Source: Nanobdellota archaeon (lineage in GTDB: Archaea; Nanobdellota; Nanobdellia; Pacearchaeales; GW2011-AR1). Taken from it: a stretch of 64,000 bases of DNA. Of this stretch, positions 2,220-47,186 are shown one piece after another. Position 1 is the first letter of the stretch. Each line of letters begins with the position of its first letter. Where the stretch lies: assembly GCA_038046005.1 (NCBI GenBank), contig JBBSXB010000009.1, positions 7,952 to 71,951 on the forward strand, written 5' to 3'. The position numbers and the translations under genes are program-made. The notes beneath the pieces are model-generated. The model made no database searches. It had not been told where the DNA came from and saw only the letters and a list, made by a program, of their open reading frames with translations.

Positions 2220-2549
2220 TTATACTTTCTTTGGTTCAAACCCTGCAACATTTAAAGTAAAAATACTGCCATTCCAACTACACCTAGCTTTCACTTCTAA
2301 TTTGTTTTGGGAATTTAAACTAACAGTTGCACCATCTTGTATGCTACATAAAAGAGTTCTAGAAACAGGCCCTAAAGTTCCAGGCTTTCCAATGCAAATT
2401 AATTCTCCTTTTTTAAATTCATAAATTCCTTCGCCAGTATAAAAAACATCTTCGGGCAAAACAGCTAATAAAGGACAATTAAAAGGTTTATCTCCATCTA
2501 AACTCCTCAAATATTCTCGAAACTTTGAATAGTCATTAACTTCTTTCAT
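2220..2549 (-). CDS. hypothetical protein (~110 aa), start taken at internal Met because upstream part of the ORF is the tRNA gene
   Basis: ORF 2220..2711 minus; N-terminal 54 codons are the translated GC-rich tRNA, so the real start is probably MKEVNDY at 2549. Confidence 0.4.
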   Translation of the reverse strand: MKEVNDYSKFREYLRSLDGDKPFNCPLLAVLPEDVFYTGEGIYEFKKGELICIGKPGTLGPVSRTLLCSIQDGATVSLNSQNKLEVKARCSWNGSIFTLNVAGFEPKKV

Positions 2550-2608
2550 AAAAATTAAATTAGTTTTAAGTTTAAATTCATTATTATACTGCAGAATATT
2601 CAAAAAAA

Positions 2609-2746
2609 CGCCCCCACCAGGAGTCGAACCTGGATGCCCATAAGGCGCGGTGAACTCGGCTTCCTTCCGAAAAGGGAGAGGGTGTGAGGGAGAACCATAA
2701 GTTCTTCCCATTCGAGACCGCTACACTACCGTTGTGTGATGGAGGC
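2609..2746 (-). tRNA. tRNA-Ser(CGA) with 58-nt intron at canonical position 37/38
   Basis: GC-rich island in AT-rich DNA. Minus-strand read: acceptor GCCTCCA/TGGGGGC (one G-U), D-arm ACAC-AACGGTA-GTGT, anticodon stem GCGGT/ACCGC, loop CUCGAA|C, 13-nt variable arm, T-arm CCAGG-TTCGACT-CCTGG, discriminator G. Confidence 0.55.
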
Positions 2747-2796
2747 ACAAAAATCGAAATCAAAATCCTTATATATATTTATTCCTTTCAAAAAAG

Positions 2797-3180
2797 ATGA
2801 ACAAAGAAATTGTCTATTTTATTATTTCGTTCTTACTGCCATTTATTTATTATAGAACTCTTTTTCTTATTGCTTCAAGGGTTTTTGACAAACCAATACT
2901 AAGAGAAAAAACAGGCCTAAAAATCCACCATATTCATTATGGAATGATCTTAACACTAATATCAGCATTGGTATTGTTATTTGCAGGAAAAAATGTTTAT
3001 GTAGTAATTTTACTTGGTTTAGGTTTAGGATTTATGTATGATGAATTTATTCCAGCACTTCTCATGAAGTCGAAAAGATCTGATGAGCTCATAGTTTACA
3101 AAAAAGCATTCAAATCAACTTCAATTTTATTCTTAATAATTATCATTATAATTCTAGCAGTTAGTTTAATAATTTTATGA
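2797..3180 (+). CDS. hypothetical multi-pass membrane protein
   Basis: ORF track; several hydrophobic helices; no family recognised. Confidence 0.35.
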   Translation: MNKEIVYFIISFLLPFIYYRTLFLIASRVFDKPILREKTGLKIHHIHYGMILTLISALVLLFAGKNVYVVILLGLGLGFMYDEFIPALLMKSKRSDELIVYKKAFKSTSILFLIIIIIILAVSLIIL

Positions 3181-3225
3181 CCACAAACTATTTAAACATA
3201 TGAAAAATCATTCATATATCTCAAA

Positions 3226-3822
3226 ATGACACACGAATTACCAAAATTAGCATACAGTTACGATTCTTTAGAACCTTTCATAGATGCAAAGACCATGGAA
3301 GTACATTATAGCAAACACCATAAAACTTATGTTGACAAATTGAATGCTGCTTTAGAAAAACATCCTGAACTTCAAAAAAAGAAAGTTGAAGAGCTTTTGA
3401 TGGATTTAAATAAAGTTCCTGAAGATATAAAGACAGCTGTAAAAAATCATGGAGGCGGCCATTTTAATCATACTTTTTTCTGGCAGATTTTAAAGAAAGG
3501 TACAAAATGCAAAGCTGAAATTGAAAAAGCAATAATAAAAAAATTCGGAAGTTTTGATGAATTTAAAAAACAATTTTCAGATAAAGCAACAACATTATTC
3601 GGCAGTGGTTGGGTATGGTTAGTTTTAAACAAAAAAGAACTCGAGATTTTACAAACTTCAAACCAAGATTCTCCAATAAGCCAAAATAAAACCCCATTGA
3701 TAGCTCTAGATGTTTGGGAACATGCATATTATTTAAAATATCAAAACCGAAGAGCAGAATATATCGAAGCTTTCTTTAACGTAATTAATTGGGACAAGGT
3801 TAATGAATTCTTTAAAAAATAA
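3226..3822 (+). CDS. sod: Fe/Mn superoxide dismutase
   Basis: [10 protein letters not shown] and [15 protein letters not shown] motifs typical of the Fe/Mn SOD family. Confidence 0.9.
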
Positions 3823-5242
3823 ATCAGTTATAATGAAAAACTCTCAAGAAACAATTGATATAAATAGGGAAAGGTATGACCACTACAATCCAGAGGACCT
3901 TAAATTTAGGTCAAAACCCGGGATAAATGAAAATTTGATAAGAGAAATATCAAAAGACAAAAAAGAGCCAGAATGGATGTTAAAAAAAAGGTTAGAGGGA
4001 TTGAAACTTTTTAATGAAATAAAAATTCCAAACTGGGGCCCTGATCTTTCTGACCTGAATATTAATGAAATATCATTGTACATAAAACCAAATGCGAAAA
4101 GAAACTCTGAAAATTGGAATGATGTTCCTGAAGAAATAAAAAACACTTTTGAAAAGCTCGGAATCCCGCAAGCTGAAAGAGAAGTTTTGGCAGGAGTTGG
4201 AGCACAATATGAAAGTGAAGTTGTTTATCATAATCTGAAAAAAGAACTGAAAGACCAAGGAGTTATTTTCATAGATTGTGATGAGGCATTGAAAGAACAT
4301 GAAGAGCTTTTCAAAAAATATTTCATGACAACATGCATTCCTCCAAATTTGCATAAGTTCACAGCATTGCACGCAGCTGTATGGAGTGGAGGAACTTTTA
4401 TTTATATTCCAAAAGGAGTAAAATTAAAAGAACCACTGCACGCTTACTTCAGAATGAATGCAAAAAAAGCAGGCCAATTTGAACACACATTAATCATCGC
4501 TGATGAAGGCTCTGATCTTCATTATATTGAAGGATGTTCTGCCCCAGTATATTCTAAAAACTCACTTCATGCAGGAGGAGTCGAAATTCACGTATTAAAA
4601 GGAGCAAGAGTTCGTTATACTTCAATTGAAAACTGGAGTAAAAACACATATAATCTAAACACAAAAAGAGCAATTGTCCATGAAAACGGAATAATTGAAT
4701 GGGTAAATGGAAATTTAGGAAGTAAAGTAACAATGTTATATCCTTGCAGTGTTTTAATAGGAAAAAATTCAAAATCAGATTATATTGGGATAGCTTATGC
4801 TGGGCAAGGACAATATCAAGATACAGGATGCAAAGTGATTCATCTGGCTCCAAATACCTCATCAACAATTTTAAGCAAAGGGATAAGTAAAAATGGAGGA
4901 ATTAGTTCTTACAGAGGGCTAATAAAAATTCCAAAAGGATCAACAAACTCAAAATCAAGTGTAAGATGTGATGGACTGATGCTGGACAATTTAAGCAAGG
5001 CTTTAACATTTCCAAGCATGGAAGTTGGAGAAAATGAAGTTGAAGTTGCGCACGAAGCAGCAATTGGAAAAATAGGGGAAGAACAATTATTCTATTTGAT
5101 GTCAAGAGGTTTAAGTGAGCAAGATGCAATAAAAATAATTGTCTCAGGATTTATAGAGCCAGTAATAAAACTCTTGCCTTTGGAATATGCTGTTGAATTA
5201 AATAAATTAATAGAGTTGGAGATAGAAAACTCTGTATGTTAA
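3803..5242 (+). CDS. sufB: Fe-S cluster assembly protein SufB (alternative start MKNSQE at 3833)
   Basis: 479 aa; conserved SufB/SufD C-terminal beta-helix region ([45 protein letters not shown]). Confidence 0.85.
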
Positions 5243-21205: not shown

Positions 21206-21310
21206 GTACTAGACACAACTGATATCTTTAAAAGTATTATTATAAACTAAAAGTATATTCAAAAATCCAAACAAAAACCTTTAAATAACAATTTCTGTTA
21301 AAAATTTCAT

Positions 21311-21433
21311 GTCCGGGTAGCTCAGTCGGTAGAGCGCACGGCTGTTACAACACGAACTGAAAAGTTCGTGGAGTCTGATAGCTCAGATAACGCAGAGACC
21401 GTGAAGTCGCAGGTTCGAGTCCTGCCCTGGACG
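21311..21433 (+). tRNA. tRNA-Asn(GTT) with 50-nt intron at 37/38
   Basis: GTCCGGG acceptor, D-arm GCTC-AGTCGGTA-GAGC, anticodon stem CACGG/CCGTG with loop CUGUUA|A, variable AAGTC, T-arm GCAGG-TTCGAGT-CCTGC, discriminator G. Confidence 0.55.
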
Positions 21434-21501
21434 TTAAATTTTAATGAACGACCTTAGCCAAATGAGAATCGTTTGAGCCTGGACGTTTTATTTTTAAGAT
21501 T

Positions 21502-37326: not shown

Positions 37327-37935
37327 ATGAAGTCAGAGCAAGAATTAATTAACCACATAGAAAAACATGAAAATTCTTCTTTAGTAAGAGCTGTGCTAGC
37401 TGGGAACACAACTTTCAAACGAGAAGCACGAAGGTTTTATGATTTAGAAGTGCGTATAATAGCTGGAAGAGGAATGGCTGGAAAATTATTCAATTTTAAA
37501 AAGGAGAGTACACTAAAATTAAACCAGAATCCTACGGAATTAATAGAGTTACTTCAGCCATTTAGTGATGAACCTATAGATAAAAATAAATTGGATTATG
37601 AGAAAGTAAGAGAAGATTACAAAAGGTGGCACTCGGGATTAAGAAAGCTAAAAATAGTTGGAATAAATATTGGAAAATTAAGTATACTTATAGGATCAGC
37701 CTTTATTACAGCAAACAACCTAGATAATTTATTGCTAGCAGTTCCTTCAGGAGCAATAACTGTTGTTGGTTCTTTTTTATACAATAAAATACTTCCTACA
37801 AACAAACCTCCAAAAAACACAAACTACGAGTTTATAGAATATATGAAAATAGATGACGCTGTTTATGAAGCTGATGGTTTTATGGATAAACAATATAGAA
37901 AATATTTTGTGGGAAAAAATCTCAAAACTAAGTAA
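37327..37935 (+). CDS. hypothetical protein
   Basis: ORF track. Confidence 0.3.
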   Translation: MKSEQELINHIEKHENSSLVRAVLAGNTTFKREARRFYDLEVRIIAGRGMAGKLFNFKKESTLKLNQNPTELIELLQPFSDEPIDKNKLDYEKVREDYKRWHSGLRKLKIVGINIGKLSILIGSAFITANNLDNLLLAVPSGAITVVGSFLYNKILPTNKPPKNTNYEFIEYMKIDDAVYEADGFMDKQYRKYFVGKNLKTK

Positions 37936-39376
37936 ATCTCTTAAACTCATTTGTATGTTTTTTGATTATTTCCATTGCTTCGCTGCCGGAAATCTTGCCT
38001 TTATATTTCTGCATGACCAACCCCATGTAAGCATTTGCATTTAATCCAGGGTTAGATTTTATTAAATTTAAAATTCCCTCTTCAATTTCACCATAATCAA
38101 TTTTTGCAGTCGCCTCTTCAAAACTCATTCCTTCAACAAGCCTGTCAAGAACTCCCTTAACATCCCCCTCATTTATTTTTCCTTTTTTGACTAGTTCTAA
38201 AACACTAGGGATCTGGTCTTCAAGTTTTTCCAAAACACTTTCAAAACTAAGCTTCTTTTTTGAAGCAATCTCTTTAGTAAAAACCAAAAGCGTTTTCGCG
38301 ACAAATTGTGGCCTGTTTAAAATAATTAGAAGTTCTTTAAATTCTTCGAGTTTTCTTTCCTTAAACAAAATAGAAATCATTTCCTCAGAAAGTCCTTGTT
38401 TTCTTAATTCATTTTCAGTTTCTTCTCTTAGTTTAGGAAGATTTTTTTTAGACACATTTATCATATCCCTTGAAATTTTCAATAAAGGCAAATCAGTTTC
38501 TGGATACATCCTCGCTGCACCAGATATTGGCCTTAGAATAACGGAGCTTCCATCTTCAAGAACATTCCTTACCTCTTTATCATTTTTTAAACCTCTATTG
38601 ACAAAATTAAGCTGCCTCTCAACTTCTTTTTCAATTGTCCTTATCATAAGTTTCGGGTCTTGAAATCCTTTAAGCTCAACTCTATTGCTCCCTTTAACTG
38701 AAATGTTAATATCCTGTCTTATTGTCCCAATTCCTCTTTTAACCTGGCACGCTCTCAATATTTCGCCAATCTTCAGCGCAGTTTCTTTCGCCTGCTCTGC
38801 ATTTTTTACGTCCGGCATTGTGGAAATTTCAACAAGTGGAATTCCCAGCCTGTCTAATCTGTAAATTACCTCACCATCTTTCTTGCTGACAAGTCTGGCA
38901 GAATCCTCCTCCAAAAAAATTCCACTTATTCCAACTCTCCCAAAACTAGTGTCAACAAATCCATCTCTAGCTATCATGACTGTCCTTTGAAATCCAGAAG
39001 TGTTGCTTCCATTGATGACCGTTTTTCTCATAATCTGTGTTATCGGAATTATTGTGGCGTTAAGCAAAGCAGAAATTTGCAAGACTATTCCTAAAGCGTC
39101 TTTATTAATTTCGTGAGGGGGCTCTTCATCCAATTCAACGAGACAGTTAGTGTTGTAAACTTGATAGACAAATTCCTCTCCCAAAGAGGCCTCATGCTCT
39201 GCAGCCATGTCAATTTCTCCAGCCTCTCCGGCTACAACATGGAGCCTTCTTCTGACAACTATCTCAGGATCATCACTCCTAAAAATGCTAGGGCAATTGC
39301 AGAAAAGTTTTCTAGTATCAAGTTGCTGATGAATTTCCAATCCAGCTTTAAAGCCTATTTTAGTGTAATCAAACAT
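37928..39376 (-). CDS. gatE: Glu-tRNA(Gln) amidotransferase subunit E (compact GatE; GatB/E family)
   Basis: N-terminus GFKAGLEIHQQLDTRKLFCNCPS (GatE-type EIHQQL); C-terminal GatB/YqeY-like helical domain; gatD present 2.7 kb away. Confidence 0.7.
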   Translation of the reverse strand: MFDYTKIGFKAGLEIHQQLDTRKLFCNCPSIFRSDDPEIVVRRRLHVVAGEAGEIDMAAEHEASLGEEFVYQVYNTNCLVELDEEPPHEINKDALGIVLQISALLNATIIPITQIMRKTVINGSNTSGFQRTVMIARDGFVDTSFGRVGISGIFLEEDSARLVSKKDGEVIYRLDRLGIPLVEISTMPDVKNAEQAKETALKIGEILRACQVKRGIGTIRQDINISVKGSNRVELKGFQDPKLMIRTIEKEVERQLNFVNRGLKNDKEVRNVLEDGSSVILRPISGAARMYPETDLPLLKISRDMINVSKKNLPKLREETENELRKQGLSEEMISILFKERKLEEFKELLIILNRPQFVAKTLLVFTKEIASKKKLSFESVLEKLEDQIPSVLELVKKGKINEGDVKGVLDRLVEGMSFEEATAKIDYGEIEEGILNLIKSNPGLNANAYMGLVMQKYKGKISGSEAMEIIKKHTNEFKRFT

Positions 39377-42035: not shown

Positions 42036-43343
42036 TCACTCCTCCAGCCTATTATTAAACTCATGGCTAATATTTGAAAGCATTATTTCTTTAATTTTCT
42101 CCTTGTCCTTTGCCCAATCATCATGGCCCAAAACCCAACCTAACTTTACAAAAGCCGTTTCAGACAGCATGTCTTCAAGAAAAACAGCCCCAGTGTCATT
42201 CAAAGCCCTGAGATTAGAATAGACATAAGGGTCGACTCTTCCATAAATGCATTGTGTTGTTATTCCCACAAAAATTCCTTTTGCAATAATTCTCTTCAAT
42301 GTTGGAATCCATGAATTTTTGGAAGTGAGAGCCGGAACATGTCCCAGACCAGTTGCCTCAATTATTAGTCCTTTATATCCTCGCTTAGCATAATAGTCTA
42401 AAATTTCAGGATTTTGACCAGGATAAATTTTTAATAAAGCAACTTGGCCTTCAAACTTTGTATCAACTTTGACTTTCTCTTTTCCAACAACATTATAAGG
42501 AGATAAAATTTCAAGAACGCTGGAAGATATTTTTGCAATTGGCTTTGAATTAACAACCTTAAATGTGTCTCTTCTTGTGGAATGTAATTTCCTGACTTTC
42601 GTGCCAGGCATTGCATAACAAAAATCATCATTTGTAGAGGCATGGCCAACAATCATGACTTCTGCAATGTCTGAAATAGCCGCAAGTGCAGCACATTTTA
42701 AATTCAAAGCAGCATCGCTAGAAGCCCTGTCAGAACTTCTCTGGCTGTAAGTTAAAACGATTGGTTTATTCAAATTCTTTATAAAAAAAGACAAAGCAGA
42801 TGAAGTGTAATGCAAAGTGTCCGTTCCATGTGTTATGACAATTCCCTTGATATTTGTATCATTCAAAAAAGGCTCAAGAGTCTTTGCAATTTTCTGCCAG
42901 TCTTTATAATCCATATCTTCGCTAGCTTTCATAAAAGGCATTTCAATTTTCACAACATTTACAATATCAAAAATCTCTGGGTAAAACTTGAATAATTCTT
43001 CTGGAGAACTCAAAGGCGCAACAGCACCAGTTCTTGAGTCATAACGATTTGCAATTGTCCCTCCAGTAATTATCATAGCAATATTTGGCTTTTTAGAATC
43101 TTTTTTAATCTCTATTTTTTCTGTTTTCTTTTCAGATTTTTCCAAAACATTAATTTCAAGAACATCTTTTTTGTTTAATCCTATATTATAACCAGAATCC
43201 AGCTTCAAAAGTATGATTCCTTTCTCGTCTTCAGGAGTTGCAAGAAAAATCCCTTCATAAACAACTTTCCCAAAATGCACCTCGACATAATCTCCAGGTT
43301 CTGGCTTGGAATGTATTGACTTTTCAGGTTTCTTTGGTTTCAT
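42036..43343 (-). CDS. gatD: Glu-tRNA(Gln) amidotransferase subunit D (asparaginase-like)
   Basis: GatD N-terminal domain (GDYVEVHF...LKLDSGYNIGL) plus asparaginase motifs ITGGTIA and VITHGTDTL. Confidence 0.85.
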   Translation of the reverse strand: MKPKKPEKSIHSKPEPGDYVEVHFGKVVYEGIFLATPEDEKGIILLKLDSGYNIGLNKKDVLEINVLEKSEKKTEKIEIKKDSKKPNIAMIITGGTIANRYDSRTGAVAPLSSPEELFKFYPEIFDIVNVVKIEMPFMKASEDMDYKDWQKIAKTLEPFLNDTNIKGIVITHGTDTLHYTSSALSFFIKNLNKPIVLTYSQRSSDRASSDAALNLKCAALAAISDIAEVMIVGHASTNDDFCYAMPGTKVRKLHSTRRDTFKVVNSKPIAKISSSVLEILSPYNVVGKEKVKVDTKFEGQVALLKIYPGQNPEILDYYAKRGYKGLIIEATGLGHVPALTSKNSWIPTLKRIIAKGIFVGITTQCIYGRVDPYVYSNLRALNDTGAVFLEDMLSETAFVKLGWVLGHDDWAKDKEKIKEIMLSNISHEFNNRLEE

Positions 43344-43348
43344 TTTAT

Positions 43349-44026
43349 TTACTCTAATTGAACGAAAACCATATTCTTAAATTTAATTTCATTAGATATT
43401 TCAGGAAAAATTTTCTTCTTTTGAATTTTATCAACTAATTCAGATACTTTTGTGTTAACAGGATATGGGTGGCAACTATATTCTATTCCATTGCAACTAA
43501 ATGAGCTTAAAATTTGAGGTAACTCATCAAGCACATAGCTAGCAAGCTTCTCAATTTCAAGTTCATCTAGCTTAAGAGTAATAGTATTTTTAACAACATC
43601 TAAAACTGATTTCTTAAAATTCTTGTCTTGATTAAATTTTTTATGGAAAAATTCTCTACGTTTTTTATACTCAAAATTTTCTAAAAGTTCTTTTCTTGCA
43701 ATATTGATAAATTTCTTCCTTTCATTTAGTAATTCATTAATAATCTCATCAATTATTATTAAAATTCTGTCTCCTTCTTTTAAGGCTCTTTTTAGTGCAT
43801 TTTCAGGACTTTGATTATTTTTAACTTCATAATTTATAGCATGGATTTTATCAGCAATCCAAATAAGCACTTTTTCTTTAGTATTTTTTAAAGCCCATCC
43901 AATATACTCTTTAAGATGTTCTTTAGTAAACCACTTATTTCCAAGACTTATTCCAATAAAAATATTATGCTTTCTAGACAAAACATCTTCTTTCTTTCCT
44001 CCCTTAACATTTATTATCTTTAACAT
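43349..44026 (-). CDS. cyclodipeptide synthase (CDPS)-like protein
   Basis: 225 aa. NIFIGISLGNKWFT parallels the CDPS signature (AlbC ...IGISAGNSYFS, catalytic Ser). SYVLDELP parallels YVLAEAP (Tyr/Glu catalytic pair). A downstream YP pair fits. 5 bp upstream of gatD on the same strand. Confidence 0.55.
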   Translation of the reverse strand: MLKIINVKGGKKEDVLSRKHNIFIGISLGNKWFTKEHLKEYIGWALKNTKEKVLIWIADKIHAINYEVKNNQSPENALKRALKEGDRILIIIDEIINELLNERKKFINIARKELLENFEYKKRREFFHKKFNQDKNFKKSVLDVVKNTITLKLDELEIEKLASYVLDELPQILSSFSCNGIEYSCHPYPVNTKVSELVDKIQKKKIFPEISNEIKFKNMVFVQLE

Positions 44027-44125
44027 TTTAAGAACTATTACTCCATAAAATAAACAAATAAGTTAAATATAAAAAACTATTCCCAACCACATAAATCTTT
44101 TTAAACAAAAAAAGTAGTAAAAGGT

Positions 44126-44515
44126 ATGAGAAGAAATTTAATTGCAGGATATGTTTTGGGAGGATTACTCACAATTGGAGGTGTGCTGACAGGAGAATAT
44201 GAAAGAATTAATGGGAAAGAAATTTTAAAAAGTAATCCCAGTTATGCGGAATACATTCAGCTAAATGATCAAATAGAAAATTTAAATCAGCTTTATGATA
44301 TGACCTCTCATTATAAAGAATTGAGATTATATAAAGAATTGAGATTACATGAAAGAGATAGTTTAAAATCCAAAAGAGATAGCTTAGAAAGTCTTGCCTC
44401 AACACAAAAAGGAATAAAAGAAGCGGAAAATAACGATTCAGCAGATTTTGCTTCTTTTGTTTTGTTTACGCTGGGTTTATCTTTACTTGGGGCAACAGCA
44501 ATTAATCATAAATGA
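44126..44515 (+). CDS. hypothetical N-terminally membrane-anchored protein with internal tandem repeats
   Basis: YKELRLYKELRLHERDSLKSKRDSLESL encoded by an 18-bp tandem duplication. Confidence 0.35.
   Translation: MRRNLIAGYVLGGLLTIGGVLTGEYERINGKEILKSNPSYAEYIQLNDQIENLNQLYDMTSHYKELRLYKELRLHERDSLKSKRDSLESLASTQKGIKEAENNDSADFASFVLFTLGLSLLGATAINHK
44312..44347 (+). repeat. 18-bp perfect tandem duplication (tataaagaattgagatta x2) inside CDS
   Basis: Direct reading of the sequence. Confidence 0.8.
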
Positions 44516-44624
44516 GCCTACTAGGAATCGAACCTAGATCAACGGGGTTTTTCAAAAGTAATCCACATAATAAAGCAAACGACTTTTCCGAAACCCGCCG
44601 TTCTATCCATTAAACTATAGGCCC
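44513..44624 (-). tRNA. tRNA-Arg(TCG) with 40-nt intron at 37/38
   Basis: Minus-strand read: GGGCCTA acceptor, D-arm GTTT-AATGGATA-GAAC, anticodon stem GCGGG/CCCGT with loop UUUCGG|C, T-arm CTAGG-TTCGATT-CCTAG, discriminator A. Confidence 0.5.
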
Positions 44625-44769: not shown

Positions 44770-45684
44770 ATGGCAACATACAAAAAGAGAAATAATTTCC
44801 AGACAGATGCTCCTGTCCAGCACATAGTCTTGAAAAGACATCATAAGATTGTAATTGGAAGTTTCACAACTATAGTCATTGTTTATATGATTATTACTGC
44901 CATACTTCTAAACGGACTAATTGTAAAGCAAAGTATCAACAATAAAGATTTGACAAATAAAATAAACAGTCTCCAAGCAGACACACAAAGCAAGTTAAAT
45001 GAAGTAACTTCAGGATTGATGAAAACAAATGAACAAGTATCCTCGTTAGGCTCTCAAGTAGGTTCAATAGACAAAGAATTTTCTTCATTAAAAGCTTCTG
45101 TAAGCGAAGATTTTTCAGGAATAATTGAGCAGTTGATTCCTTCCGTCGTAACAATAAGAACAAACATAGGCCAGGGAACAGGTTTTGTAATAACAGATGA
45201 CGGATATGTAGTAACAAATGCCCACGTCCTTTCAGGAGGAAATTTTGTCCAGGCAATAAATTACAAGCAAGAAATCATTGAAGCAAATTTAGTAGGTTAC
45301 TATGAAAATTACGACATAGCTCTTTTGAAAATTAACGGAAGTTATACCCCATTAAAATTAGCAAATTCAAACAATGTGCAGATTGGAGAAAAAGTCATAG
45401 CAATTGGAAATCCTTTAGGTTTGCAATTTTCTGTCTCTCAAGGAATTGTTTCAGGAGTCCACAGATCAGGCCCAAATAATTTGTTAGCATACATCCAAAC
45501 AGATGCTGCATTAAATCCTGGAAACTCCGGCGGCCCTTTAATAGACAAAAATGGAGAAGTTGTTGGAATAAATAATTTCAAAATCGGTTCAGGAGAAAGC
45601 TTAGGATTTGCACTAGAGAGTAATTTCATAAAAGATTCTGTGAATCAAATAGCTTACAAAAACTTGAATCAAACTTTGATTTAA
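44770..45684 (+). CDS. HtrA/DegP-like trypsin-family serine protease (membrane-anchored, no PDZ)
   Basis: N-terminal TM and coiled coil; catalytic-triad context GFVITDDGYVVTNAHV, YDIALLKI, GNSGGPLID. Confidence 0.8.
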   Translation: MATYKKRNNFQTDAPVQHIVLKRHHKIVIGSFTTIVIVYMIITAILLNGLIVKQSINNKDLTNKINSLQADTQSKLNEVTSGLMKTNEQVSSLGSQVGSIDKEFSSLKASVSEDFSGIIEQLIPSVVTIRTNIGQGTGFVITDDGYVVTNAHVLSGGNFVQAINYKQEIIEANLVGYYENYDIALLKINGSYTPLKLANSNNVQIGEKVIAIGNPLGLQFSVSQGIVSGVHRSGPNNLLAYIQTDAALNPGNSGGPLIDKNGEVVGINNFKIGSGESLGFALESNFIKDSVNQIAYKNLNQTLI

Positions 45685-45731: not shown

Positions 45732-47186
45732 ATGCAGGAAAAACAGAACAAAGAAGGATTAACAGTCAAGAAAGATGAGAATTTCTCAGAATGGTATTCA
45801 CAAATTGTCCAGAAATGCGAGCTGGCAGACCTCAGATACAATGTCAAAGGTTTTTTAGTTTTTCAGCCATGGTCTGTCCTTTCTATGGAAAAAATGTACT
45901 ATTATCTTGAAAAAGTATTGCGAAGAAAAAAACACAAACCATATTTTTACCCAACAGTTATTCCAGAAAGCAATTTCAAAAAAGAATCTTCTCATGTCAA
46001 AGGTTTTACGCCGGAAGTTTTTTGGGTTACACACGGCGGAACAAAAGAACTGGAAGAGAGACTTGCTTTAAGACCAACTTCAGAAACTGCGTTTTACCAG
46101 ATGTTTGCATTATGGATAAGAAGCTACAAAGACCTTCCATTTAAGACGTATCAAAGAGCTCAAGTTTTTAGATATGAAACAAAAGCCACAAGACCTTTCC
46201 TAAGAAGCAGAGAATTTCACTGGATAGAAACCCATTGTGTTCACGCAACAGAAAAAGACGCTTTGACCCAGGTTAATGAAGACATGGAAACGACTGAGGA
46301 AGTTTTACATCAAATTTTTGGGTTGCCATTCATGTTTTTTGAAAGACCTTCTTGGGATAAATTTGCAGGAGCATACAGAACATTCGCAGCAGATGTTTTG
46401 AATCCAGATGGAAAAGTTGTCCAACAACCTTCAACCCACATACTCTCTCCTAGTTTTGCAAAAGCATTTGGCATAAAATACAAAGACAAAGACGGCAAAG
46501 ACAAAGGAGTCTATACAACATGCTACGGCCCAGCTGTTTCTAGGATAATGGCAAGTGTTGCAATAGTCCACGGAGATGATAAAGGATTAAAATTCCCCTG
46601 GGAAATTGCCCCAGTCCAAGTTGTAATAGTCCCCATAGGTGAAGAAAAAGAAGTAATTGAAAAAGCGAAAGTCCTTGAAAGTAAAATAAGTGAATTAGCC
46701 TCGGTAGAGATAGACGAAACAAACAAAAGACCGGGAGAAAAATTCAACTATTGGGAAATGAAGGGAGTCCCTTTAAGAATTGATATGGGAATGAATGATA
46801 TAAAGAAAAAACAATTAACAATATTTAGAAGAGATTTAGACAAAAAAGAAACCATTCAAGAAAAAAACATTTTAAGCTACATAGAAGAAACTTCAAAAGA
46901 AATAACAAAAAATCTCAGAGAAAAAGCTGACAAGATTTTTAACAACAGAATAAAACTAGCAAAATCCAAAGAAGAAATGAAAAAAATAATAGAGCAAGGT
47001 GGAATAGTTCAATGCAATTTTTGCTCTGTAGAAAAAGAAGGAATAAAATGTGCAGAAGTCATAGAAAAAGAAATTGGTGCTGATGTTAGAGGAACCAGAT
47101 TAGATGAAACAAAAAAACCTTCAGGAAATTGTGCAATATGCAATAAAAAGGCAAACCATGTTGTTTACATCGCCAGAAGCTACTGA
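45732..47186 (+). CDS. proS: prolyl-tRNA synthetase (archaeal/eukaryotic type)
   Basis: Class IIa motifs (RPTSETAFYQMF, FRYE); C-terminal zinc-binding domain ending ...CAICNKKANHVVYIARSY. Confidence 0.9.
   Translation: MQEKQNKEGLTVKKDENFSEWYSQIVQKCELADLRYNVKGFLVFQPWSVLSMEKMYYYLEKVLRRKKHKPYFYPTVIPESNFKKESSHVKGFTPEVFWVTHGGTKELEERLALRPTSETAFYQMFALWIRSYKDLPFKTYQRAQVFRYETKATRPFLRSREFHWIETHCVHATEKDALTQVNEDMETTEEVLHQIFGLPFMFFERPSWDKFAGAYRTFAADVLNPDGKVVQQPSTHILSPSFAKAFGIKYKDKDGKDKGVYTTCYGPAVSRIMASVAIVHGDDKGLKFPWEIAPVQVVIVPIGEEKEVIEKAKVLESKISELASVEIDETNKRPGEKFNYWEMKGVPLRIDMGMNDIKKKQLTIFRRDLDKKETIQEKNILSYIEETSKEITKNLREKADKIFNNRIKLAKSKEEMKKIIEQGGIVQCNFCSVEKEGIKCAEVIEKEIGADVRGTRLDETKKPSGNCAICNKKANHVVYIARSY

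Follow-up and report, generated by a model that had tools for sequence, protein, structure and literature searches.

Background

The fold of tRNA-dependent cyclodipeptide synthases (CDPSs) is Rossmann-type and related to the catalytic domains of class-Ic aminoacyl-tRNA synthetases (aaRSs), and the HIGH and KMSKS ATP motifs are expected to be absent from CDPSs. The clusters containing AlbC and YvmC also carry tailoring enzymes (cyclodipeptide oxidase, P450). In the subfamily of CDPSs from small CPR and DPANN genomes ParcuCDPS is the only characterised member that we found, and no archaeal one was found. ParcuCDPS was assigned to the XYP subfamily and produces cyclo(His-Pro) and cyclo(His-Glu), Glu-tRNA being used for one of them; mutagenesis showed that S26, D58, Y167 and E171 are needed, and histidine is selected by the P1 residues Y55, E174 and Y189 (PMC7613923).

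Here we analyze a CDPS gene of a tiny groundwater archaeon that is followed by gatD. The window, i.e. the whole stretch of DNA that was analyzed, comprises 64,000 nucleotides.

The locus and its genes

The features of the locus, with positions in the window, are as follows.

37928..39376, minus strand: gatE, 482 aa, short form (NF003107 466.6 bits, cutoff 456)
42036..43343, minus strand: gatD, Glu-tRNA(Gln) amidotransferase subunit D, 435 aa
43344..43348, minus strand: CDPS-gatD spacer of 5 nt, ATAAA, read from the sequence
43349..44026, minus strand: CDPS gene, 225 aa
44126..44515, plus strand: lineage-specific 129-aa ORF between tRNA-Arg and the CDPS gene
44513..44624, minus strand: tRNA-Arg(UCG) with a 40-nt intron (Rfam tRNA 55.7 bits)
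44770..45684, plus strand: HtrA-type protease (NCBIfam)
45732..47186, plus strand: ProRS (NCBIfam)

The stop codon of the CDPS gene (TAA) lies at 43351-43349 and the ATG of gatD at 43343, in agreement with the coordinates, sequence features and 5 bp gap given in a preliminary description of this DNA. The gatD product matched NF003217 with 456 bits (cutoff 310) and TIGR02153 with 443 bits (cutoff 324) and showed the Pfam domains GatD_N, Asparaginase and Asparaginase_C; judged by these matches the gatD call is genuine. The match of gatE to NF003107, a profile of 630 positions, was split into two stretches, and Pfam assigned only GatB_N and GatB_Yqey to this protein. The preliminary description regarded gatE as unlinked, a view that does not hold since gatE is found on the same strand 2.7 kb downstream of gatD and the neighbourhood recurs in relatives in the order gatD ... 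DUF1003 ... gatE, with an intervening Fic gene in the window and in locus L069.

The tRNA-Arg(UCG) gene was missed by ARAGORN in default mode and was found with Rfam and with the intron mode of ARAGORN, which called tRNA-Arg(tcg). The same tRNA gene is located upstream of the CDPS gene or of gatD in L004, L005, L069, L126, L127, L131 and L133, and is the conserved upstream boundary of a variable slot that contains the CDPS gene. The 129-aa ORF gave no Pfam or NCBIfam match; it is present only in the same-genome copies L001-L003 and absent from L004, L005, L069 and L126. The HtrA-ProRS order was also observed in L004, L005, L126, L127 and L129, so that these two divergent genes are synteny anchors common to relatives with and without the CDPS gene.

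Identification of the CDPS

The translated ORF (N-terminus MLKIINVKG) contains the motifs IGISLGNKWF (S27), SYVLDELP (Y164...E168) and HPYPV (Y188-P189). The search with PF16715 that the preliminary description had proposed gave 68.8 bits (Pfam cutoff 27), and TIGR04539 gave 77.9 bits (cutoff 45). The top relative of solved structure was ParcuCDPS (7QB8; E 5.4e-34, approximately 32% identity across residues 5-215), and AlbC was matched with an E value of 1e-6. Alignment of 36 homologues showed S27, G29, Y164, E168, Y188 and P189 to be invariant and N30 and D59 to be kept in at least 90% of the sequences, the latter two being invariant in a 19-sequence alignment of the clade. S27, within ISLGN, pairs with S26 of ParcuCDPS, and Y164, E168 and Y188 align to its Y167, E171 and Y191. 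The Y188-P189 pair, the mark of the XYP subfamily (Tyr-Pro at AlbC 202-203), is invariant across the subfamily. Since the residues are invariant in homologues and the HMM scores are well above the curated cutoffs, the motifs are not a chance resemblance.

The AlphaFold (AF2) model of the protein had a pLDDT of 94.6 and a pTM of 0.89. The best 50 matches of this model in a Foldseek search against the PDB were all CDPSs (50/50), with a TM score of 0.83 to 7QB8 and of 0.63-0.78 to AlbC and YvmC, the two enzymes against which a fold comparison had been suggested. By its sequence and its modelled structure, ORF 43349..44026 is a bona fide tRNA-dependent CDPS of the XYP subfamily, which bears out both the catalytic Ser/Tyr/Glu set and the XYP resemblance put forward in the preliminary description. 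An identical protein from a Nanoarchaeota MAG is already named tRNA-dependent CDPS at NCBI.

The preliminary description also suggested that the protein could be aaRS-like, with a class-I Rossmann fold, and moonlight with GatD. In a fuller form of this idea it would be no active CDPS, having decayed or been repurposed to bind tRNA as an accessory of GatD. This suggestion and the adjacency of gatD speak for an inactive CDPS, and nothing else does. On the other hand, the protein is neither truncated nor disrupted, its catalytic residues are conserved in the 36 homologues, its fold is confidently that of a CDPS with HMM scores exceeding curated cutoffs, and no HIGH or KMSKS string was found in its translation, as should be the case in CDPSs. 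An ordinary CDPS sequence and fold lead us to reject the moonlighting aaRS-like protein, and we regard an inactive CDPS as extremely unlikely.

By analogy, we infer that the enzyme would form a 2,5-diketopiperazine from two aminoacyl-tRNAs. Homology suggests that these would be consumed in a ping-pong reaction in which Ser27, positioned by Asp59, would receive the first aminoacyl group, Tyr164 and Glu168 would assist the attack of the second aminoacyl-tRNA, and Tyr188 would aid cyclisation. The P1 pocket consists of W56/Q171/H186 as opposed to Y55/E174/Y189 in ParcuCDPS, suggesting that the substrate choice is probably different. The P1 positions are also variable within the clade, where E, Q, I, M or L occurs at the site of ParcuCDPS E174. 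Prediction of the product from pocket residues was dropped, since 3/3 of the P1 determinants of ParcuCDPS differ and vary within the clade. The proximity of ProRS as a hint at a Pro product was likewise rejected, because ProRS and HtrA flank gatD also in relatives lacking the CDPS gene. Weak "ProRS" matches in L039 and L067 (24% identity, approximately 4-5 kb from the CDPS gene) probably represent another class II synthetase.

Distribution of the CDPS-gatD arrangement

The six loci of a narrow clade, in which CDPS identity is 57% or more, all have the order tRNA-Arg(UCG), CDPS, gatD. The distance between the CDPS gene and gatD in the relatives is 4 nt in L005, 30 nt in L004 and 34 nt in L069, and the two genes overlap by 4 nt in L131 and L133; a spacer of at most 5 nt or a 4-nt stop/start overlap thus occurs in 4/6 clade lineages. 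Such tight spacing, kept over approximately 40% CDPS divergence, resembles that of translationally coupled operon partners and counts against an accessory role of the CDPS gene.

Outside the clade GatD was found near the CDPS gene at none of 108 family loci, of which 84 have at least 1.5 kb of downstream sequence; 13 of the 108 come from archaea and have good flanks. Synteny is also kept without a CDPS gene around the gatD of L126, L127 and L129 (89%, 73% and 73% GatD identity, respectively). The question raised in the preliminary description, whether homologues in related genomes also sit next to gatD, is therefore answered positively within the clade and negatively for the 108 other family loci. 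In L126, HtrA and tRNA-Arg are followed by gatD after 40 bp, and neither a CDPS gene nor a remnant of one is present. The CDPS status of the GatD sister pairs was present/absent, present/absent and present/present in a gain/loss history based on seven GatD loci and identity matrices.

The GC content of the CDPS gene is 25.7% (GC3 18%), compared with 35.2% (27.5%) for gatD and a window mean of 32.6%. When the surroundings of the CDPS gene were searched for copies of the tRNA 3' end in direct orientation, only short two-copy matches emerged, such as a 16-mer at 44223 and 44549. Neither an att-like duplication nor an integrase was found, which gives no support to a classical integrative element.

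The constant presence of tRNA-Arg(UCG) upstream of the CDPS gene on the same strand (6/6 clade loci), at distances of 6 nt in L005, 19 nt in L133, 58 nt in L004 and 75 nt in L131, could indicate that the CDPS gene is co-transcribed with this rare-codon tRNA of a 33% GC genome and that Arg-tRNA(UCG) is its dedicated substrate. We consider this very improbable. The tRNA-Arg gene is adjacent to gatD without a CDPS gene in L126 and L127, which indicates that the tRNA is backbone and not cargo. Moreover, the tRNA and CDPS genes are separated by an opposite-strand ORF and approximately 490 nt in the window and by a permease gene in L069. Variable regions are commonly bounded by tRNA genes.

Promoters and transcription

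An initial scan for sigma-70 promoters and intrinsic terminators was discarded because the model is inapplicable to an archaeon, and was replaced by a promoter-box PWM; the two terminator-like matches of that scan, both inside gatD, equal the number expected by chance. The PWM was trained on 58 genes of the window that are preceded by a gap of 29 nt or more; 41 of the 58 have an AAaTTTAWAWA box whose first base lies 30-35 nt ahead of the ATG. Two matches near the CDPS gene are relevant here.

44068..44079, minus strand: TAGTTTTTTATA, highest-scoring BRE/TATA-like match ahead of the CDPS gene (PWM 5.2 bits)
43373..43384, minus strand: AAATTTAAGAAT, weak box-like string in the 3' end of the CDPS gene (PWM 6.0 bits)

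The string TAGTTTTTTATA begins 53 nt before the ATG of the CDPS gene, a position that implies a short CDPS leader. L004 and L069 also have the string TTTTTTATA(T/C), as found in the window, ahead of their CDPS genes. A canonical box at -32 of gatD is present in L004, L069 and L126, and in L004 and L069 it lies inside the 30-34 nt CDPS-gatD spacer. No canonical -32 box was found before gatD in the window, where the 6.0-bit match was the only one and was off position. This string, AAATTTAAGAAT, precedes the gatD ATG by 41 nt, a distance 9 nt greater than usual. Its score corresponds approximately to the 90th percentile among random 40-mers of coding sequence, and it doubles as the conserved KFKNM codons. 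It is a possible candidate for an internal gatD promoter. With the spacer collapsed to 5 nt, transcripts from the CDPS promoter probably read through into gatD and account for at least part of its transcription, and co-transcription of the two genes in this genome is plausible as far as the sequence goes. The weak box at -41 and the canonical gatD boxes of L004 and L069 point the other way.

Discussion

The main question is why the CDPS gene abuts gatD. A functional module would involve deliberate co-expression, the CDPS drawing on or regulating the Glu-tRNA(Gln)/Gln-tRNA(Gln) pool of GatDE, for example to form a Glu/Gln cyclodipeptide. The two genes share a strand and a 5-nt spacer, the order CDPS-gatD is kept in 6/6 clade members with a 4-nt overlap in two of them, ProRS and gatE are also close by, and the nearest characterised enzyme, ParcuCDPS, also yields cyclo(His-Glu) (PMC7613923). 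Since ParcuCDPS uses Glu-tRNA and the substrate of GatDE is Glu-tRNA(Gln), a link at the substrate level is not absurd. However, GatD is nearby in 0/108 of the other family loci, and the synteny persists in the absence of a CDPS gene in L126, the closest GatD relative at 89% identity, and in two others, which indicates that GatD does not need the CDPS. In L004 and L069 gatD has its own canonical box. The P1 residues vary among clade members, arguing against a single shared GatD-related substrate, and ProRS, HtrA and gatE are backbone synteny present also in CDPS-less relatives. No precedent for a CDPS with GatD was found in the literature: searches for CDPSs together with GatD or an amidotransferase, with archaea or Woesearchaeota, or with a SET domain returned nothing relevant.

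We therefore regard a functional module as unlikely, and the novel aminoacyl-tRNA-consuming CDPS-GatD pathway envisaged in the preliminary description is unsupported by the 108 other loci and the three CDPS-less GatD relatives. The stronger proposal, that the CDPS gene has reached fixation at the head of a tRNA-Arg-CDPS-gatD transcription unit and that its enzyme taps mischarged Glu-tRNA(Gln) or Gln-tRNA(Gln) for a Glu/Gln cyclodipeptide, is in our view very improbable; if true, the state of indirect tRNA aminoacylation in this host-dependent archaeon would be linked to a small molecule that can diffuse. Use of GatDE-related aminoacyl-tRNAs by the CDPS would be a novel connection of secondary metabolism with indirect aminoacylation; comparative evidence argues against such use.

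The reading that we prefer, and consider likely, is that of an accessory XYP CDPS in a variable slot between tRNA-Arg and gatD, coupled to gatD by genome compaction and sharing no pathway with it. The CDPS gene would be an accessory AT-rich gene occupying the slot from tRNA-Arg(UCG) to gatD, inherited patchily within one small Nanoarchaeota (Pacearchaeota-like) lineage, and would abut gatD because an optional gene became lodged there in that lineage. Transcriptional coupling of the two genes would then stem from compaction of the genome. Co-transcription by read-through is what we infer from this arrangement, and functional coupling between CDPS and GatD would be absent. If this is correct, an accessory natural-product gene can drive or share the transcription of an essential translation gene in ultra-compact genomes. 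The finding of the CDPS itself matters little, as it is publicly annotated already and its adjacency to gatD would be explained by local gene-order history.

Comparison with known CDPSs

DPANN archaea and CPR bacteria fairly often carry a CDPS gene. Archaeal labels were assigned to 15 of 63 species-level genome loci of the CPR/DPANN CDPS subfamily; the earlier statement that CDPSs are rare in archaea is thus true of the characterised literature and not of this subfamily. The CDPSs of L007 (Pacearchaeota), L009 (Woesearchaeota) and L006 (Patescibacteria) have 39-45% identity to the one described here, equal length and the same invariant residues. Subfamily members outside the clade differ in having no gatD in the retrieved flanks of 5-6 kb.

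The recurrent partners of the subfamily are small SET-domain proteins and GNATs. A small SET-domain protein adjoins the CDPS gene at 10 loci of the genome scan and at 5 metagenome loci (tblastn), with 2 fusions, and a GNAT was found beside the CDPS gene at 6 genome-scan loci. Both kinds of partner are absent from the whole window. No description of SET-domain proteins or GNATs as CDPS partners was found in the searchable literature, and they are possible new partners of CDPSs with a tailoring or regulatory role.

AlbC of Streptomyces noursei and YvmC of Bacillus are the founding CDPSs of the NYH type and have the family and fold in common with the CDPS described here. The Ser/Tyr/Glu/Tyr catalytic residues of AlbC (S37, Y178/E182, Y202) are also shared. 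AlbC and YvmC are NYH enzymes (His at AlbC 203), whereas the present protein has Y-P and is therefore assigned to XYP, even though an Asn of it aligns with AlbC residue 40. No tailoring gene, be it for a methyltransferase, a prenyltransferase, a P450 or an oxidase, and no other CDPS-cluster gene adjoins the CDPS gene, its neighbours being gatD, the 129-aa ORF, tRNA-Arg and HtrA.

ParcuCDPS (locus L050) belongs to the same small-genome CPR/DPANN subfamily as the CDPS described here and has the same catalytic set, S26/D58/Y167/E171/Y191-P192 corresponding to S27/D59/Y164/E168/Y188-P189. Unlike ParcuCDPS, the present CDPS has an archaeal host and is encoded directly upstream of gatD.

Identity of the CDPS gene

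The preliminary description had proposed an XYP-type cyclodipeptide synthase (CDPS) with the Ser/Tyr/Glu set, encoded immediately ahead of gatD:

43349..44026, minus strand: CDPS ORF, 225 aa, intact (ORF reading)
between TAA 43351-43349 and ATG 43343, minus strand: spacer of 5 nt, ATAAA, from the CDPS stop to the gatD start (sequence read directly)

The 225-aa ORF contained all three motifs IGISLGNKWF, SYVLDELP and HPYP, and the proposed profile search was positive, with 68.8 bits for PF16715 of Pfam (cutoff 27, E 7e-19) and 77.9 bits for TIGR04539 of NCBIfam, "tRNA-dependent cyclodipeptide synthase" (cutoff 45). The top match among solved structures was the CDPS of Parcubacteria bacterium RAAC4_OD1_1 (ParcuCDPS; 7QB8 and its mutants; E 5.4e-34, residues 5-215), followed by the CDPSs of Porphyromonas, Streptomyces (AlbC, E 1e-6), Bacillus (YvmC, BtCDPS) and Mycobacterium (Rv2275). 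The AlphaFold2 model, built from a 36-sequence alignment, was very confident (pLDDT 94.6, pTM 0.89). Its top 50 Foldseek matches in the PDB were CDPS structures only, with a TM of 0.83 to 7QB8 and of 0.63-0.78 to AlbC and YvmC, bearing out the expected CDPS fold.

Residues S27, G29, Y164, E168, Y188 and P189 were invariant in the 36-sequence alignment; D59 and N30 were nearly invariant there and invariant in a 19-sequence alignment of the clade (homologues at least 57% identical to the window CDPS). In the HMMER alignment S27, D59, Y164, E168 and Y188-P189 correspond to S26, D58, Y167, E171 and Y191-P192 of ParcuCDPS, an XYP-subfamily enzyme whose activity requires S26, D58, Y167 and E171, as determined by mutagenesis (PMC7613923). 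The 225-aa ORF is therefore a cyclodipeptide synthase by every test run and, given the invariant catalytic set and the match to ParcuCDPS, was correctly assigned to the XYP type. With catalytic residues and fold both intact, the alternative of an aaRS-like protein that is inactive and moonlights is improbable. The annotation is not new, since an identical protein is already public at NCBI as [quoted passage not shown].

Neighbourhood in the window

42036..43343, minus strand: gatD, 435 aa (NF003217, 456 bits vs 310; GatD_N plus asparaginase N and C domains)
37928..39376, minus strand: gatE, 482 aa
39408-40187, minus strand: Fic/DOC-domain protein gene
44126-44515, plus strand: family-less ORF, 129 aa, between tRNA-Arg and the CDPS gene
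44513..44624, minus strand (as the CDPS gene): tRNA-Arg(UCG), with an intron

Described earlier as unlinked, gatE in fact lies 2.7 kb beyond gatD on the same strand, the interval holding the Fic-domain gene, a DUF1003 gene and two family-less ORFs. A Fic/DOC-domain gene occupies the same interval in the related locus L069 (4109-4894). The 630-position GatE profile matched the window GatE in two stretches, and Pfam found GatB_N and GatB_Yqey without the middle insertion domain; GatE is similarly short (474-484 aa) in the related loci L004, L069, L126, L127 and L129, suggesting a GatE of GatB size in these archaea. In L003, an independent assembly of the window's genome (Logan SRR32696686), gatD is frameshifted into pieces of 137 and 298 aa (2455-3761), which may reflect strain variation or misassembly.

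Upstream of the CDPS gene are a 99-nt intergenic region, the 129-aa ORF, tRNA-Arg(UCG) and divergent HtrA and ProRS genes. The 129-aa ORF runs 3 nt into the 3' end of the opposite-strand tRNA gene, carries a perfect 18-nt tandem duplication (44312-44347; YKELRL twice) and had no counterpart in any relative examined. The tRNA gene has an intron of 40-43 nt in the window, L004 (gene at 3791-3905) and L133 (1825-1936) and is intronless in L005 (5923-5994), L069, L126 (5887-5960), L127 and L131; in L004, L129 and L133 the tRNA is closely preceded by a free-standing LAGLIDADG ORF. Elsewhere in the window, a tRNA-Asn(GUU) with a 50-nt intron (21310-21434, plus strand), missed by ARAGORN in default mode, was confirmed by Rfam (58 bits). 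For a tRNA-Ser(CGA) with a 58-nt intron (2608-2747, minus strand), the only call came from ARAGORN intron mode; it had no Rfam support at the gathering score and overlaps ORF 2220-2711.

Distribution of the CDPS-gatD pair

In all CDPS homologues at 57-67% identity on informative contigs the order was tRNA-Arg(UCG), CDPS, gatD, as follows:

L004 (P0007): CDPS-gatD spacer of 30 nt
L005 (P0005): spacing of 4 nt
L069 (P0008): spacing of 34 nt; permease gene between tRNA and CDPS gene
L131 (P0002): 4-nt overlap
L133 (P0006): 4-nt overlap

Outside this clade, loci at 28-49% identity were collected from species-representative genomes (63) and metagenomes (56); 108 had a substantial CDPS match, 84 had at least 1.5 kb downstream, and 13 with good flanks were labelled archaeal (Woesearchaeota, Pacearchaeota, Nanoarchaeota). 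None of the 108 had a GatD match at E < 1e-4 near the CDPS gene. The expected adjacency to gatD in related genomes thus held within the narrow clade but not beyond it.

The closest GatD proteins were also searched and their contigs retrieved (L126, L127 and L129). L126, with the nearest GatD (89% identical), has the window's backbone of ProRS, HtrA, tRNA-Arg(UCG), gatD, DUF1003 and gatE, with gatD starting 40 bp past the tRNA and neither a CDPS gene nor a remnant between them. In L127 (GatD 73%) a NUDIX gene and an amino-acid permease gene separate tRNA and gatD, and in L129 (GatD 73%) a LAGLIDADG ORF and a tRNA precede gatD. The slot permease gene (Aa_trans / Trp_Tyr_perm) immediately precedes the CDPS gene in L069 (376-1497) and gatD in CDPS-less L127 (4839-5969). 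These gene orders show that gatD does not need the CDPS gene. They also contradict a CDPS dedicated to the adjoining tRNA-Arg, as tRNA and gatD are adjacent without it.

In the identity matrix the GatD sister pairs window/L126, L005/L129 and L004/L069 were +/-, +/- and +/+ for CDPS, indicating that the gene is patchily present in a slot whose cargo differs among relatives. A single ancestral insertion with repeated later losses would account for this pattern, the alternative being repeated gain. The CDPS gene has a GC content of 25.7% (GC3 18%), against 35.2% (27.5%) for gatD, 34-37% for HtrA, ProRS and gatE, and 32.6% for the whole window, a distinctness typical of accessory genes.

Transcription

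A bacterial promoter and terminator scan was uninformative because the host is an archaeon, and a promoter pattern was therefore learned from the 58 window genes whose upstream gap is 29 nt or longer. An AAaTTTAWAWA box began 30-35 nt before the ATG in 41 of them, which implies that mRNAs are probably mostly leaderless, with one promoter per gene even in gaps of 30-45 nt. The gatE box, at -32, scored 8.2 bits. Two further matches concern the pair:

43373..43384, minus strand: AAATTTAAGAAT, best gatD box match, at -41 (6.0 bits)
44068..44079, minus strand: TAGTTTTTTATA, CDPS gene box, at -53 (window-learned pattern)

With this pattern no box was found at the usual position of the window gatD, and AAATTTAAGAAT scored near the 90th percentile of random coding 40-mers and doubles as conserved KFKNM codons. 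In L004 and L069, too, the TAGTTTTTTATA string precedes the CDPS gene. A canonical TTTT(T)ATA box is present at about -32 of gatD in L004, L069 and L126, in the first two within the spacer after the CDPS gene, pointing to a promoter of gatD's own in these three. The proposed co-transcription is thus favoured for the window genome, with transcription probably running on from the CDPS promoter into gatD, but the boxes in L004 and L069 indicate that such coupling would not be a fixed property of the clade.

Recurrent CDPS neighbours in the subfamily

Two neighbours recurred when all ORFs of the 63 genome loci were clustered. A small SET-domain protein (about 150 aa, PF00856) recurs in 10 loci, in bacterial and archaeal MAGs alike, in most directly downstream of the CDPS gene and often overlapping its stop; a GNAT acetyltransferase (about 142 aa) directly adjoins the CDPS gene in 6 species-level loci.

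SET-domain genes: L006 6686-7141; L008 3197-3685; L015 2664-3140; L017 6642-7034; L024 6698-7171; L027 4718-5215; L034 6705-7157; L045 7069-7587; L016 3813-4250 (upstream of the CDPS gene)
GNAT genes: L020 5579-6007; L025 6681-7112; L042 6753-7178; L044 6747-7202; L047 3852-4289; L048 6679-7107

By tblastn with one representative of each, SET adjoined the CDPS gene in five metagenome loci (L074, L086, L087, L088, L097), a GNAT match was near it in three (L078, L093, L121), and neither partner was found in the window. Two database homologues, P0026 and P0058, are SET-CDPS fusions. No paper on a CDPS paired with a SET-domain protein came up in a full-text search, and the SET-domain protein could be a novel partner of CDPSs in tailoring or regulation.

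Substrate pocket and origin of the arrangement

Within the clade, the position equivalent to ParcuCDPS E174 holds E, Q, I, M or L and that of Y189 holds H or Y. Even the clade thus has no single shared pocket, and the product of the window CDPS is not predictable from its pocket residues.

In one form of the GatD-coupled pathway raised initially, the CDPS and GatD would be a true module tapping Glu-tRNA(Gln) or Gln-tRNA(Gln); this reading is contradicted by the absence of GatD from the 108 non-clade loci, by the close GatD relatives lacking CDPS and by the variable P1 pocket; no paper connecting a CDPS with GatD turned up in a literature search. A functional role for the tightly packed tRNA-Arg-CDPS-gatD unit is, in our view, very improbable. 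On the comparative evidence, the link would be a lineage-specific positional accident. Most economically, an ordinary XYP-type CDPS, of a subfamily common to CPR bacteria and DPANN archaea, would have been inserted into the tRNA-Arg(UCG)/gatD slot in the ancestor of a small Pacearchaeota-like lineage and later lost from several descendants, the spacer in some survivors having shrunk to a few nucleotides, which is common in such compact genomes.

In ParcuCDPS, which makes cyclo(His-Pro) and cyclo(His-Glu), histidine is selected by the three P1 residues Y55, E174 and Y189 (PMC7613923), whereas the window CDPS has W56, Q171 and H186 at these positions.
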